62,223 nucleotides of DNA from a virus. Its lineage: Duplodnaviria; Caudoviricetes. A model generated the notes under the pieces. The model searched no databases and was not told the origin of the DNA. It was given only the letters and a program-made list of their open reading frames with translations. A program made the position numbers and the translations under genes. Shown here piece after piece: positions 19,895-41,537 of the stretch. Positions within the stretch are counted from its first letter, which is position 1, and each line of letters starts with the position of its first letter. The DNA lies in IMG/VR virus record IMGVR_UViG_3300014720_000037, positions 1 to 62,223 of that record. One strand, given 5' to 3'.

Positions 19895-20245
19895 TCATGT
19901 TGTTTTATTAGTCTTCCTAGTTTGTCTCTCATAATTAAACACCTCCTTAGTCACATTAAAGTATTTGCACAAAGTATTCATATTAGATGTAAGACTATTA
20001 CAGCCATTAATCATCTCTGATAGTTGTCTTGATTTAATACCAAGATCAGATGCTATATCATCTCTCTTCTTACCACTCATCTTAACTAACAACTCAAGAG
20101 CAATAGCGCCCCTTCTTTGTCTCCAATGAGTAATAATAGACTCAGCTAACACCATATCGTGTAAGGATAAGGTGCCACTCCCATATAACTTCTTTAACTG
20201 TTTAAATTGGGTCAATGTTTGTGGGTATATAATTGTATTGTTCAT
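19895..20245 (-). CDS. XRE-like HTH protein
   Basis: KRDDIASDLGIKSRQLSEMING. Confidence 0.5.
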   Translation of the reverse strand: MNNTIIYPQTLTQFKQLKKLYGSGTLSLHDMVLAESIITHWRQRRGAIALELLVKMSGKKRDDIASDLGIKSRQLSEMINGCNSLTSNMNTLCKYFNVTKEVFNYERQTRKTNKTT

Positions 20246-37279: not shown

Positions 37280-37945
37280 TTATTCATTATCAGGAATAGT
37301 AATAGTATTAGTAGCATTAGCTTCTGACAGACTAATATCCACCTCATCTTCAAACTGAGTAATAAAGTCATCTAACTTATTAATCTCAGCAGTAAAGTCA
37401 AAAGGTTCATAGATCTTAGGATAGTTAGTAGCCGCATAACCAGCAGTAATCTTAGCTACAAAGGTTTCATCAGGCTCCTTTCCTTTCTCTTGCTTTTCAA
37501 GCTCTTTAGCTTTAATAACAAAGGCTTCCAACTTTCTATTATATTCAACTAGTTCTCTCTCCAATCTAGTTCTAGCAGCTTGTTGCTCCCTTCTTAGAAA
37601 GTTTAAAAGCTCCTTTTGAATGTGGATTGTCTTCTTCTTTTCAATTGCTTCTGCCACTGTAAATGTATTACCAGCAATGGTAATAGTATTACTAGCATTA
37701 GATAGAATTACAAGACTTTTAATCTTGTCCCTTCTATTAATCAATGTTGTTACAGATTGATATTGAGCCTTAGCATCCTCTCTAAACTTATCAATCTCCT
37801 TTTTTCTATTTGTAGATTCTAAATTAGAAGGGGCCACAACAAGATAGCCTTGAAAGCTAGAATTAGTAGTATTAAGCTTACTAATCCTATCAGTTAAAGT
37901 ATCAATCTCTTTAAGCGCTCTAGTAATTGTTAGTGTTACAGTCAT
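37280..37945 (-). CDS. DIP1984-like coiled-coil protein
   Basis: TITRALKEIDTLTDRI...TVAEAI...EVDISLSEANATNTI pattern. Confidence 0.55.
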   Translation of the reverse strand: MTVTLTITRALKEIDTLTDRISKLNTTNSSFQGYLVVAPSNLESTNRKKEIDKFREDAKAQYQSVTTLINRRDKIKSLVILSNASNTITIAGNTFTVAEAIEKKKTIHIQKELLNFLRREQQAARTRLERELVEYNRKLEAFVIKAKELEKQEKGKEPDETFVAKITAGYAATNYPKIYEPFDFTAEINKLDDFITQFEDEVDISLSEANATNTITIPDNE

Positions 37946-37997
37946 ATTGTTTAACCTTTGAATGTTGATTTAAATTATATTTACTCAATAGAGTAAG

Positions 37998-38082
37998 TGC
38001 CTGAGAAAGGATTTGAACCTTCACATCTTTTACAAGATAACACATCCTAAGTGTGTTGTGTCTGCCTTTCCACCACTCAGGC
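37998..38082 (-). tRNA. tRNA-Leu(UAG), long variable arm, CCA not encoded
   Basis: Acceptor stem GCCTGAG/CTCAGGC plus A, D-loop GG, anticodon arm ACACA-CTTAGGA-TGTGT and T-loop GGTTCAAATCC. Confidence 0.93.
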
Positions 38083-38088
38083 AAAAAT

Positions 38089-38115
38089 ATACTTGTTAGT
38101 ATTACTAACAAGTAT
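38089..38115. promoter_or_regulatory. Perfect palindrome just 5' of the tRNA gene (operator or processing hairpin)
   Basis: ATACTTGTTAGTA-T-TACTAACAAGTAT. Confidence 0.4.
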
Positions 38116-38267
38116 TTAGAGAAAACTTTTTATCCATATCCACATGTAATATAACTTACATCATATTACTTGTCAACTAACTATTACTTCTTAGCTACTT
38201 CAGTAACATTAGTAATAACTTGTTGTGGGTTAGCAGCTATATAAATTCCTTTAATATAGTAAATAAT

Positions 38268-38327
38268 TACAAGATGATTGTGTTATCAGTTAAACGTTGA
38301 TTACATTATTATTTGCTGAATCATCTT
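38268..38327 (-). ncRNA. Solitary eighth CAGCAA hairpin unit downstream of the DUF2828 gene
   Basis: AAGAUGAUU-CAGCAA-insert-AAUCAUCUU-GUA, the same architecture as the array. Confidence 0.8.
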
Positions 38328-38347
38328 TATTTATCTATTATATCAGA

Positions 38348-39907
38348 CTACTTTATAGCACTGCTAACAGCATCATATCTACTAGAATAAACAGCCTCTC
38401 TCATCACATCAACAGCAGTTATAACCTTACTATTAAGTACAGCCTTCATAGTAGAAGGAGAGCAACCACTAACAAGAGCAACGCCTCTATCATCAATGGT
38501 CATAGGAACATTAGAGGCGCTACAAACATTCCAGAAGATAATATTAGGCATAGTATAACCCGCCTTATCATATAACTTCTGCATCTGTTCTAAGTTAGTT
38601 CTCTTATTACTAATACAACATCTATCAAACTGCATATCACTTACAATAATCAAAGAACTAGGCATTTGATCTTGGGGCACCTTACCTTTAACACCAGCAT
38701 CTAATATGGCTTTAATAGCCTTCATTAGATTTGTGTTCTCCATCCTTTGAGTACTTCTAACAACTGTTTGTAGTTTAGTGTATATGTCACCACTACTAGG
38801 TAAAGATACAAGTCTTGGATTACCATCAAAGACAATAAACTTATCTTTCCAGTAATCACTTGTATTCCTTTCAGCAATATATACTGCTAATGATACAGAC
38901 ACATCAATAGGTTTAATGTTTGATGTCTTTCTTTTACCAGTACCATCAGTATAGCTATAAGGACTATACATTGATCCTGACACATCAGCTAATACTAAAC
39001 CATTAAAGTCAGCCCCTTCCATGTAATTAGGTAGAGCCTGCCATTGAGCACTTAGACCTTGTCTCTCAGTATTAGATATCTTCTTCAACCCAGTATAACT
39101 ATTAGTAACAGCATTACTAATGTCATAAGGATATAAGGTGCTAGCATTAATCTTCTTCTCACCTCTACTAACAGCTTCTATGTACTGTTTATATCTATCT
39201 TCATCATGCTTTTGAAAGGCCTTTCTATACATCAACATAGCCTTAGATGGCACATGCTCATAGTTAATATTAGACCAATCACCACTACACATTGCATGTT
39301 CTACAATGTTGATTCTTGTTCTCAATCTAACTAGTAACTGTCTATAGTCTTTCTCACTTAGACCTAAATCCTTAGCAACCTTTCTACCTAGCTCCTTAGT
39401 TCTTTTACTAGAAGCATTAATAGATGGTAGCCATTTACCCAACAGAGATACTGAGTTATCACTATTTAGAGCTAATACATCCTTATCTAATTGAGCCTTA
39501 AACAAGTCAATAACAAGGGGCCACAAGTATGTGTCATGTAGTACTAATATATCATCCCATCTACCATAGAATGGAATCAAGTGTACTAATTTCCTAGCAA
39601 GAGGACTAAGACTAATAGCTAACTCTCTAAACACATGTCTAAATACAGATCTTTCACCTTGACCACCATTACCACTACTATTACTTCTAACATCTCTGCC
39701 ATAGAATAGTATTCTTAAAGCTGTCTCTTCATCCTCATTGAGAGCCATATTAAACAGATGAGTAATACCACTTAAATCATCTCTAGAGGAGCCAACCTTA
39801 CCAAAGAAGTCAACACAACTATTAAGAGTACTTGTATATGCCTTAGCACCATTCCAAGTAGTAGTTGTGTTTAATCCTCTATTCAAACTACTAATAAAAT
39901 CTGTCAT
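38348..39907 (-). CDS. DUF2828 / TROVE(Ro60)-like helical protein with a C-terminal vWA domain
   Basis: RD..GGQGER..FR, YGRWDD, GKWLP, INYEHVPSKAM, LYPYD, DVSGSM, TNL, SDMQFD, FWNV and VSGCS. ATG at 39907 is preferred over TTG at 39919. Confidence 0.85.
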   Translation of the reverse strand: MTDFISSLNRGLNTTTTWNGAKAYTSTLNSCVDFFGKVGSSRDDLSGITHLFNMALNEDEETALRILFYGRDVRSNSSGNGGQGERSVFRHVFRELAISLSPLARKLVHLIPFYGRWDDILVLHDTYLWPLVIDLFKAQLDKDVLALNSDNSVSLLGKWLPSINASSKRTKELGRKVAKDLGLSEKDYRQLLVRLRTRINIVEHAMCSGDWSNINYEHVPSKAMLMYRKAFQKHDEDRYKQYIEAVSRGEKKINASTLYPYDISNAVTNSYTGLKKISNTERQGLSAQWQALPNYMEGADFNGLVLADVSGSMYSPYSYTDGTGKRKTSNIKPIDVSVSLAVYIAERNTSDYWKDKFIVFDGNPRLVSLPSSGDIYTKLQTVVRSTQRMENTNLMKAIKAILDAGVKGKVPQDQMPSSLIIVSDMQFDRCCISNKRTNLEQMQKLYDKAGYTMPNIIFWNVCSASNVPMTIDDRGVALVSGCSPSTMKAVLNSKVITAVDVMREAVYSSRYDAVSSAIK

Positions 39908-39914
39908 ATGTTTG

Positions 39915-40461
39915 TACAAGTTAATTTGTTTTCTTTTACCTTAGAAAATTGTATTAATTGCTGAATTAACTTTTAACAATTAATGTGTTATACAAGATAG
40001 TTACTTATTTTGTCTAAATGCCAAAGGTTAGTTAATAATTTGCTGAACTATCTTAGATTATTTAATTACAAGATGACTTTGTTTTCTTAAGACAATTAAT
40101 GGTAAGAAATATAATAGTTGCTGAGTCATCTTATTAGAGATTTACAAGATACGTCTTTTGCCATTGGCAAGCATTACTAGTGCTTATTTATATTATTGCT
40201 GAAGTATCTTAGATTATTTAATTACAAGATAGTATATTTAACTTATTTTAGCCTGGAGCCAAAGGTTAATTAATTGCTGAACTATCTTTGTTTATTGCAA
40301 GATGATTACTGTTTCTTAGTTTTACCTTTGCAAGAAATATAATAATTGCTGAATCATCTTATGTTTAATATCTACTATTACAAGTTAATTTAACCACCAA
40401 CTGGCTAGCAAGCTGCTATTCAGGAATTGAACCTAATATAAAATTATTGCTGAATTAACTT
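39915..40461 (-). ncRNA. Array of seven hairpin units with invariant CAGCAA (putative Y-RNA-like small RNAs)
   Basis: Units at 39915-39972, 39991-40054, 40067-40132, 40143-40210, 40223-40288, 40296-40360 and 40379-40461. The 9-bp closing stems show compensatory changes and the inserts are variable. Confidence 0.85.
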
Positions 40462-40481
40462 TATCTAATAGTATATACTAA

Positions 40482-41537
40482 CTATGTAGTTTCATCCTTA
40501 CCATGCTTCTTCATAAACTTATTGTTCTTAATTTTAATAAACTTATAACCATTACTAAGAACAACGCCTTCATTTAATGTTTTACCATCAAGAATAGAAT
40601 ATTCATGTTGTGCTAATTGATTTACCAACTCCATAAGATCTAATGAGAAGAGCCCTCTATATAACTCAGGTACAAAGTACAAGTTAGTACTTCTTCTAAG
40701 TACATTCAAATCAATATAAACACCATCAACATAGATAGCATATATATAAACAACTGGCTTATCTAAATCATAGTTAAAACCTTTAATATATGGGATAACT
40801 TCACCAATGATTTGCACAACAGAGCCACTAACATTCTTACCACATAGATTAGACAATAGAGATTTAAATGTGCTATAAGAGTTATCCCAATCAATACATC
40901 CAATAGTATTAACCCAAGCCCTCTTATAAGCATTATCAACGCCTTGTTTAAACACTAAGCCTTGATCCCATAAACCTTTACTACTGATGTACTCCTGACC
41001 ATCTATCCAAATAATGTTTATTTGACTACCATGTAACTTACTAGTAATAGTTACATCTTGGCCCTCTTTAAATCTATCTAGATATACAGATGGATATTTA
41101 CAATCATGTTTGATGTCATGCTTTAACTCTTTATCAAATACTTCAACGGTGTCTTTTAACTCATTAGGAATATCAGGCACATACTTAGTAATGCCTAACA
41201 CATCACTAATATCAACACCAACTTCAAACTCACTAATGTCATACCCCATTTTATTGAGTACTTCATTAGGAATAACAATGCCTTCTGACTCTTGCTCTCT
41301 AAGTACTACAAAGCCAACCCTATCTTTATTTGGCCCTCTAAGATACTTGTTCCATTCCTCTAACATAATAGAGTGAGTTAATACACTGTTCTTAGGAACA
41401 GCTACACCCTTATCACCATTCTTATATGTTCCTTTAGCAACAACATATTGATGATCACCAATGCTTACTAGTTCTAACAGATCAGCATTAGGATGTGGAT
41501 ATACATTTACACGTTCAACGCTTACTTTAAATGACAT
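40482..41537 (-). CDS. ATP-dependent RNA ligase, DRB0094/Rnl5 family
   Basis: HPNADLLEL N-domain, motif I TSKLHGS, GEV, EGVV and KIKN. Confidence 0.85.
   Translation of the reverse strand: MSFKVSVERVNVYPHPNADLLELVSIGDHQYVVAKGTYKNGDKGVAVPKNSVLTHSIMLEEWNKYLRGPNKDRVGFVVLREQESEGIVIPNEVLNKMGYDISEFEVGVDISDVLGITKYVPDIPNELKDTVEVFDKELKHDIKHDCKYPSVYLDRFKEGQDVTITSKLHGSQINIIWIDGQEYISSKGLWDQGLVFKQGVDNAYKRAWVNTIGCIDWDNSYSTFKSLLSNLCGKNVSGSVVQIIGEVIPYIKGFNYDLDKPVVYIYAIYVDGVYIDLNVLRRSTNLYFVPELYRGLFSLDLMELVNQLAQHEYSILDGKTLNEGVVLSNGYKFIKIKNNKFMKKHGKDETT

Follow-up and report, generated by a model that had tools for sequence, protein, structure and literature searches.

A tandem array of small RNA units beside a predicted Ro60-like gene in a Caudoviricetes virus probably includes a permuted tRNA mimic

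The window analyzed here is the whole 62,223-base stretch of one viral record (IMGVR_UViG_3300014720_000037), rated about 28% complete. Seven tandem units lie on its minus strand between an RNA ligase gene and a 519-codon gene, and each is built of a helix of 8 to 11 bp, the motif CAGCAA after the 5' strand, a variable insert, and the 3' strand followed by G-U/C-A. This report concerns unit 1, the first of them in the 5'-to-3' direction, which begins 20 nt past the ligase stop codon and is probably a Y-RNA-like small RNA of the phage with an interior that mimics a permuted tRNA body. The locus holds the following features.

40482..41537, minus strand: gene for an RNA ligase, immediately upstream of unit 1
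40379..40461, minus strand: unit 1, with an outer stem of 9 bp and CAGCAA; its insert is tRNA-like and permuted, running T arm, short hairpin, D arm
39918..40361, minus strand: units 2 to 7, plain stem plus CAGCAA without a tRNA-like insert, with stems of 8 to 11 bp
38348..39907, minus strand: gene for a predicted Ro60-like protein of 519 amino acids (DUF2828 plus DUF7788/vWA, with the DxSGS motif of an adhesion site that depends on metal ions [MIDAS]), 472 nt downstream of unit 1 on the same strand
38267..38327, minus strand: unit 8, stem plus CAGCAA, just downstream of the Ro60-like gene and outside the seven-unit array

Unit 1 is composed of the following elements, given in their 5'-to-3' order after the enclosing helix.

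40365..40481, minus strand: extra lower helix, present in unit 1 only, in which 40481-40466 pairs with 40380-40365 (inverted repeat I3; 16 nt, 88% complementary)
40453..40461, minus strand: 5' strand of the outer stem, AAGUUAAUU, forming 9 bp with 40382-40390
40447..40452, minus strand: CAGCAA motif, which immediately follows the 5' stem strand, a putative binding determinant for the Ro60-like protein
40420..40436, minus strand: T arm, UUAGG/UUCAAUU/CCUGA, with a 5-bp stem, which aligns to the T arm of covariance models R1 and R2 (described below)
40406..40418, minus strand: acceptor-like closed hairpin, a GCA-GCU-UGC core after A/AU, marginal
40393..40405, minus strand: D arm, GCC/AGUUGGU/GGU, preceded by UA at 40407-40406 (tRNA positions U8 and A9)
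40382..40390, minus strand: 3' strand of the outer stem, AAUUAACUU, preceded by UA after the D arm and followed by GUA

A preliminary description of the locus had read the insert as a T arm (UAGG-UUCAAUU-CCUG, 40435-40421), a closed hairpin (AGCA-GCU-UGCU, 40417-40407), and a D arm with the conserved GG (UAGCC-AGUUGGU-GGUUA, 40407-40391), an order that is permuted relative to tRNA. All three were found on the minus strand at these positions, with the T stem extending to 5 bp (40436-40420). The order is as read and is kept in relatives, but the acceptor-like stem of unit 1 is marginal, with 3 bp if U8 and A9 are left free and 4 to 5 bp if they pair. A spacer of 10 nt separates CAGCAA from the T arm. 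The lower helix and the outer stem together make a long, interrupted terminal stem, and the 131-nt fold that includes both has an energy of -26.8 kcal/mol (z -2.0; 8 of 200 shuffles as good).

Unit 1 resembles tRNA in its T loop (UUCAAUU with G53-C61), in its D loop (AGUUGGU with G18 and G19), and in the U8 and A9 ahead of the D stem, and of the nucleotides that make tertiary contacts in tRNA, U8, A14, G18, G19, U54, U55, C56, A58, and G53-C61 are all there, though a canonical 15:48 pair is not. It differs from tRNA in its permuted order, its closed acceptor, and its lack of an anticodon arm, and it is not a canonical cloverleaf. ARAGORN and Rfam, the latter at the gathering threshold, called only tRNA-Leu at 37997-38082 in the whole window and did not call unit 1.

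The motifs of the insert are rare in the window. The pattern GGTTCRANNCC occurs twice (in tRNA-Leu and in unit 1) against 0.07 expected, a count that 0 of 100 shuffles reached, and the D arm TAGCNAGTTGGT occurs twice against 0.02 expected, its second match lying in a coding region. A generic T arm followed within 6 to 40 nt by a D arm was found once on both strands, namely, in unit 1, with 0.08 expected per shuffled window, and the expectation falls to 0.037 when a hairpin is required between the two arms (300 shuffles). The full descriptor, consisting of CAGCAA, the T arm, U plus any nucleotide, the D arm, and the closing outer stem, was matched 29 times across the 703 kb of DNA that were fetched, whereas shuffling gave 0.1 matches per replicate (10 replicates).

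The 519-amino-acid protein encoded downstream of the array was assigned by Pfam to DUF2828 and DUF7788 (9.9e-41 and 4.1e-38), not to Pfam TROVE, and corresponds to PHROG 850, "RNA-binding protein" (8.7e-132). A sequence search of the PDB with the single protein gave no match, and a search with a profile of 58 sequences returned a vWA protein only and no Ro60. A structure model built on the 58 relatives (predicted local distance difference test score, 91.1; predicted template modeling [TM] score, 0.91) was compared with the PDB by Foldseek. All 13 matches with E values of ≤0.001 were full-length Ro60/TROVE proteins, with TM scores of 0.38 to 0.57 over 527 to 596 columns, and they included those of Xenopus, human, Deinococcus (Rsr), and Thermus phage phiLo; the lower-ranked matches were vWA domains only. 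The phiLo Ro60 (9kop and 9l5y) was among the top fold matches and shared 13% to 16% identity with the window protein in the fold alignment. MIDAS residues D308, S310, and S312 are invariant in the 58 relatives. Because all significant fold matches are Ro60 and the sequence searches gave no Ro60, the gene is predicted to encode a Ro60-like ring with a vWA domain whose sequence is too diverged for recognition. This link comes solely from the fold search and describes a structural relative, orthology to Ro60 being a separate claim. It offers a likely role for Pfam DUF2828 (PHROG 850), a family of phage proteins that is widespread.

Related loci were collected from IMG/VR, in which 360 of 409 pattern matches encode relatives of the Ro60-like protein. 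The best 80 were kept (35% to 47% identity in the best tblastn segment), and locus counts refer to the 78 usable loci among them. At least one stem-plus-CAGCAA unit is present in 59 of the 78, and 151 units lie on the strand of the gene versus 34 on the opposite one. We define the DUF2828-associated family by a helix of 7 to 11 bp, CAGCAA 0 to 3 nt after the 5' strand, a U/G-rich tail after the 3' strand, and a position beside a same-strand DUF2828 gene; unit 1 falls within this definition. CAGCAA is present in all eight units of the window, where TCAGCAA occurs 19 times against 8.1 expected, and it is invariant across the 13-unit alignment A4 described below.

Permuted units lie directly upstream of the DUF2828 gene in four of the related loci (L021, L060, L062, and L078) and 1 kb downstream of it in L206, a record rated 100% complete, and a pattern scan of viral contigs revealed further ones in L207, L208, L210, L165, and duplicates. 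Their acceptor-like stems are mostly 5 to 7 bp long, with several of 7 bp, and often carry UUCG, UCCG, GUAA, or GUAU loops; UA or UG stands ahead of a canonical D arm. Alignment A4 comprises 13 permuted units. Left out of it were the window's own unit, duplicates or near-duplicates (L092, L125/L127/L146/L163/L196, L140, and L155), and doubtful parses (L068, L109/L209, and L135/L166). Pairing holds in 96.3% of the 296 cells of A4, and both sides have changed in 19 of its 24 base pairs; 0 of 500 shuffles were as good, and partners slid along the alignment pair at 30% to 47%. Homologous arrays keep permuted units with T and D motifs, a check that the preliminary description had proposed, and they keep un-permuted ones too.

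These data bear on the idea that unit 1 is a chance resemblance, in which two hairpins, one resembling a T loop and one a D loop, share a single variable insert by accident. The inserts of units 2 to 8 are unrelated in sequence, the thermodynamic signal of unit 1 is not significant, and the D-arm definition taken alone is permissive, with 280 matches on one strand. However, the joint expectation is 0.04 to 0.08 per window, that of the full descriptor is 0.1 per 1.4 Mb, and viral contigs that are unrelated show this order and these junctions again, with covariation, next to the same protein family. We therefore consider coincidence very unlikely.

Two covariance models were made, R1 from the whole permuted unit (13 units of other viruses, window excluded) and R2 from the core of T arm, acceptor-like stem, and D arm. 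R1 placed unit 1 at 23.9 bits (E 0.0095), and the seven array units, including all six plain units 2 to 7, were among its ten best matches in the window; unit 8 was matched at 38266-38330 (18.6 bits, E 0.13). When R2 was run on the 581-nt array, unit 1 (E 0.0024) was the sole match below an E value of 1.

Several results weigh against the reading of unit 1 as a Y-RNA-like small RNA with a tRNA-like interior. R1 gave plain unit 5 a score of 24.0 bits, equal to that of unit 1, so the R1 score of unit 1 reflects the terminal helix with CAGCAA and not the tRNA-like part, and R2 gave unit 1 just 8.7 bits, which across the whole window amounts to an E value of 0.26 and second place after an unrelated site. 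The D stem is only 3 bp long, the usual A21 is missing from the D loop, and the Levitt pair, 15:48, would be a noncanonical G:A or G:U, a position that pairs in 8 of the 13 A4 units. The 3-bp acceptor-like hairpin is no better than chance would give in 12 nt, as judged from shuffles. In both the minimum free energy and the centroid structures from RNAfold, unit 1 has its outer stem and its T and D hairpins but not the middle hairpin, and in the former the AGCA of CAGCAA pairs with UGCU, competing with the acceptor-like hairpin. The folding energy of unit 1 is ordinary (z -0.95; 35 of 200 shuffles as good). In three of five records with permuted units no DUF2828 gene was seen, all three being fragments rated 3% to 66% complete. 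A promoter and terminator scan of 39700-40700 found sites no commoner than in shuffles and no promoter-like site ahead of unit 1. RNA ligase relatives were found by tblastn within about 2.5 kb in 0 of the 78 related loci, and the ligase is therefore not taken as a conserved partner.

Unit 1 is probably a reduced member of the permuted tRNA-like subclass, and we call it reduced because it has the shortest spacer (10 nt versus 17 to 36 nt in relatives), the shortest acceptor-like stem, a D stem of 3 bp, and no A21. The same traits would be expected of a decayed relic, descended from a permuted unit in an AT-rich phage, that has lost its working acceptor stem and part of its D arm and is now a plain CAGCAA unit. 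The 3-bp acceptor-like stem against 5 to 7 bp in most relatives, the short spacer and D stem, the low core-model score, and the ordinary folding energy agree with such decay. On the other hand, the T arm is perfect (5-bp stem, UUCAAUU, and G53-C61), AGUUGGU is kept with its GG correctly spaced and UA at the U8 and A9 positions, and the 16-nt lower helix added in unit 1 alone suggests maintenance. In addition, unit L207a has almost no acceptor stem and keeps canonical T and D arms, so a short linker is possibly tolerated in unit 1 as well. We regard decay as improbable, though the least improbable of the alternatives considered here. Unit 1 is likely to be a genuine and functional tRNA-like module of the DUF2828-associated family, and with still greater confidence it can be called a genuine module of that family if both functional and decayed states are counted.

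Relatives of the window protein also encode the same elements in un-permuted order: the 5' strand of the acceptor, the D arm, an anticodon-type stem, a closed hairpin of helix plus CAGCAA, the T arm, and the 3' strand of the acceptor. The cyclic order of elements is the same in these composites and in unit 1, and the break point alone differs. An un-permuted descriptor gave 19 distinct matches, 15 of which were counted as composites, in the following loci.

L003, L007, L008, L034, L035, L057, L063, L064, L068, L076, L081, and L135: un-permuted composites, found by descriptor

Seven composites exceed the gathering score of the Rfam tRNA family (RF00005), with 38.5 to 51.5 bits over 112 to 120 nt, and none were called in an ARAGORN run without intron search. 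L007, which encodes the closest relative of the window protein among the best 80 of 360, has the un-permuted form downstream of its gene. In the last units of L063, L076, and L035, the helix is either wrapped around a tRNA or finishes in a T arm.

Tracts of about 115 nt, in which a tRNA-like gene holds a CAGCAA stem-loop of about 45 to 55 nt in its anticodon loop, were observed in L008 (1944-2058 and 2199-2313), L034 (2180-2299), L007 (4216-4341 and 4450-4561), and L063 (1539-1658 and 1709-1827); that at 4216-4341 in L007 is under the Rfam tRNA threshold. Reading these genes by eye, we could not reconstruct a clean 7-nt anticodon loop with U33. Such genes, each a tRNA with an insert, escape ARAGORN without intron search in phage tRNA clusters. 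In L073 (2138-2238), a unit helix with CAGCAA encloses a complete tRNA with anticodon UCA (tRNA-SeC according to ARAGORN, 2157-2230), which is a third way of joining helix and tRNA.

The circularly permuted tRNA genes of the red alga Cyanidioschyzon merolae and two-piece (permuted) tmRNA genes are processed to normal tRNA or tmRNA. They share with unit 1 an element order that is rotated with respect to the mature fold, but unit 1 has no anticodon loop, and its closed acceptor seems to be the final state. Unit 1 could be a permuted tRNA precursor, in which RNase P and 3' trimming would act at the acceptor loop and the ligase would join the outer helix, giving the un-permuted tRNA-like RNA for which other phages have genes or even a working tRNA. 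The RNA ligase gene that ends 20 nt ahead of unit 1, the un-permuted form with a closed CAGCAA hairpin in relatives, and the 7-bp acceptor-like stems of several relatives speak for this route, as does the report that the YrlA RNA of Mycobacterium smegmatis, which has a 7-bp acceptor stem, is cleaved by RNase P and gains CCA (PMC4201824). The acceptor-like stem of unit 1, however, at 3 to 5 bp, would be a poor RNase P substrate. Moreover, an anticodon loop is absent in every form, the stable tetraloops on the acceptor stems of relatives suggest that the closed form is final, and the ligase is unlinked to the DUF2828 gene in the 78 related loci. We give this route little credence.

The closest published parallel to the arrangement of unit 1 is that of the YrlA RNAs, tRNA-like Y RNAs of bacteria and mycobacteriophages that are bound by Rsr/Ro60. 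They are reported from 254 bacteria and 22 phages, and their genes share a strand with Ro60 and lie no more than 4 kb from it (PMC4201824). They carry the motif GNCGAAN0-1G near the 5' end, a proposed Ro60 contact, and between their T and D stem-loops, which are conserved, comes an acceptor-like stem-loop of variable length (PMC4201824). As in YrlA, the 5' and 3' ends of unit 1 pair in a stem that in YrlA binds the protein (PMC4201824; bioRxiv 10.1101/312249); the T arm, closed acceptor-like stem-loop, and D arm follow in the same order, with an acceptor-like stem of just 3 to 5 bp in unit 1; the RNA is a same-strand neighbor of a gene for a Ro60-type ring, here Ro60-like by fold; and Y-like RNAs without a tRNA-like part occur alongside (YrlB in the published case and units 2 to 8 here).

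In contrast to YrlA, neither strand of 37532-41026 contains a GNCGAA match, and the 5' region of unit 1 is instead AAGUUAAUU-CAGCAA. The partner is a DUF2828 plus DUF7788 protein that sequence searches do not recognize as TROVE or Ro60, and the RNAs form an array of 7 + 1 units with no Rfam family match. The DUF2828 relatives also encode the un-permuted topology, a form not found in the available parts of the YrlA accounts. The name YrlA-like, as used in the preliminary description, therefore holds for the topology and not for the family. Rfam 15, scanned over 39700-40700 at E values of ≤10, matched no family, including the Y-RNA families and the tRNA clan, to unit 1, although Rfam may lack a YrlA model. 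The wider link to Y-RNA biology is supported, the neighbor being predicted to fold like Ro60 and the arrays of other phages keeping tRNA-like units. Judged by its sequence, unit 1 has YrlA architecture and genomic logic, yet it lies outside the YrlA sequence family, and membership was rejected because the defining GNCGAA motif was looked for and is absent.

Thermus phage phiLo encodes a Ro60-type ring with the Y-like RNAs Yrl1 and Yrl2 just upstream of the gene, and these RNAs were identified by a CGAA motif and a stem-bulge-stem shape (PMC12135203). The window shares with phiLo and with Deinococcus Yrn1 the combination of a Ro60-type ring and Y-like RNAs upstream of its gene. It differs in that no tRNA-like module is described for Yrl1 and Yrl2 in the available part of PMC12135203. 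Jumbo phages also carry Ro60 with Y-like RNAs, the protein being of the TROVE type, as in phiLo (PMC7824862). Full-text literature searches, whose scope left out supplements and subscription papers, returned no description of DUF2828-linked RNAs. The DUF2828 Ro60-like proteins and their own Y-type RNAs, some of which are tRNA mimics in two or three topologies, apparently constitute an undescribed family.

The only tRNA gene called in the window, tRNA-Leu(UAG) at 37997-38082 on the minus strand, has a variable arm, AUCUU-GUAA-AAGAU, that is identical in sequence to the unit helices at their closed end. Of the seven copies of ATCTTGTAA in the window (1.8 expected), five lie in units or in tRNA-Leu. 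The repeat common to tRNA-Leu and the units may reflect a shared protein site, a processing site, or recombination between repeats. In one low-depth contig of 151 nt (run X9), unit 4 is joined from 40141 to the 3' half of tRNA-Leu via the shared repeat; this contig may represent a deletion variant without units 5 to 7 and the Ro60-like gene, or it may be an assembly chimera. Among the sequencing runs listed as containing the window there was no RNA run. Four DNA sequencing runs gave short contigs only, all otherwise identical to the window and therefore without variant copies of unit 1. A blastn search of the locus against 50,697 phage records gave no match.

This contig and the frequent location of DUF2828 loci within phage tRNA clusters (78 tRNAs called in 80 upstream regions) would be in keeping with a captured fragment of a phage tRNA gene that recombined into the array and has no function of its own. 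Such a fragment would be expected to keep the tRNA order, yet in unit 1 the T arm precedes the D arm, and neither the 3' strand of an acceptor nor an anticodon arm is present; furthermore, what the family conserves is the permuted order. Capture thus appears highly improbable.

On the preferred reading of unit 1 as a Y-RNA-like small RNA with a tRNA-like interior, the terminal helix with CAGCAA would serve as a handle for the Ro60-like ring encoded next door. Adjacency, strand bias, and invariance of the motif point to such binding. The handle would take the place of the anticodon stem, with the T arm, closed acceptor-like hairpin, and D arm as the insert, and the T loop UUCAAUU and the GG of the D loop would form a tRNA elbow. 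This elbow might present the particle to enzymes and factors that read tRNA shape, including modification, processing, and repair enzymes and host tRNA-targeting factors. Recognition of the insert through its elbow is suggested by analogy with the effector module of YrlA, for which such a role has been proposed, and by the way in which relatives preserve both the T and the D arm. We infer that the array is transcribed and processed and that the elbow forms even in the reduced unit 1. The setting, with the ligase here, a kinase/phosphatase-like gene (assigned by eye) in L001, and the tRNA clusters, fits the handling of tRNA or damaged RNA during infection; against this, no specific enzyme partner is conserved across the loci.

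The purpose and the effector of the tRNA-like module of bacterial Y RNAs are at issue, and the paper on the YrlA structure anticipates an elbow-binding factor. The present loci add a protein family without detectable sequence similarity to Ro60 but with the same predicted fold, and with small RNAs of its own that would also carry a tRNA elbow. Because the same elements occur permuted and un-permuted, beside many plain units, we argue that the elbow, and not the connectivity, is the selected feature. The loci provide a natural set of variants for binding, modification, and pull-down work.

A bolder proposal, which we hold only tentatively and think unlikely to be right, is that DUF2828 proteins and stem-plus-CAGCAA RNAs form a second, sequence-unrelated Ro60/Y-RNA branch in phages, with the handle fused to a tRNA body by three routes or more. 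In the window it would replace the anticodon arm, the acceptor being closed; elsewhere it would sit as a hairpin within the anticodon loop of a tRNA gene that is otherwise normal, or surround an entire tRNA. In the boldest version of this proposal, the forms would interconvert through RNase P-type cleavage and the neighboring RNA ligase, and the particles would act as tRNA decoys or repair scaffolds against host defenses that cleave tRNA.

As for the remaining features of the window, the product of the ligase gene matches Pfam RNA_ligase at 28.6 bits (cut-off, 27) and PHROG 968, "RNA ligase" (8e-33), and its match to the oligonucleotide-binding (OB) domain PHA02142, at 24.4 bits, is under the cut-off of that model. 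The helix of unit 8, AAGAUGAUU/AAUCAUCUU, is nearly identical to that of unit 2. The search of 39700-40700 with Rfam at E values of ≤10 gave six subthreshold matches; two of them, in units 7 (39917-39971) and 5 (40070-40130), were to Dictyostelium class I RNA, with E values of 2 and 4.2, and these, which reflect a short stem and the word CAGCAA, were taken as chance. A subthreshold R1 match on the plus strand at 19988-20035 (20.3 bits, E 0.058), a helix with ACAGCC instead of CAGCAA, is probably also due to chance.

Two further observations concern the related loci. In the array region of L003 (1430-1600), a repeat of about 39 nt is present four times in tandem, and the contig is also duplicated internally (900-1260 = 1600-1990). 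In L208, a viral fragment of 5.3 kb, a phage tmRNA (4727-5082, minus strand; 156 bits in Rfam) lies about 450 nt from two permuted units, together with several tRNAs.

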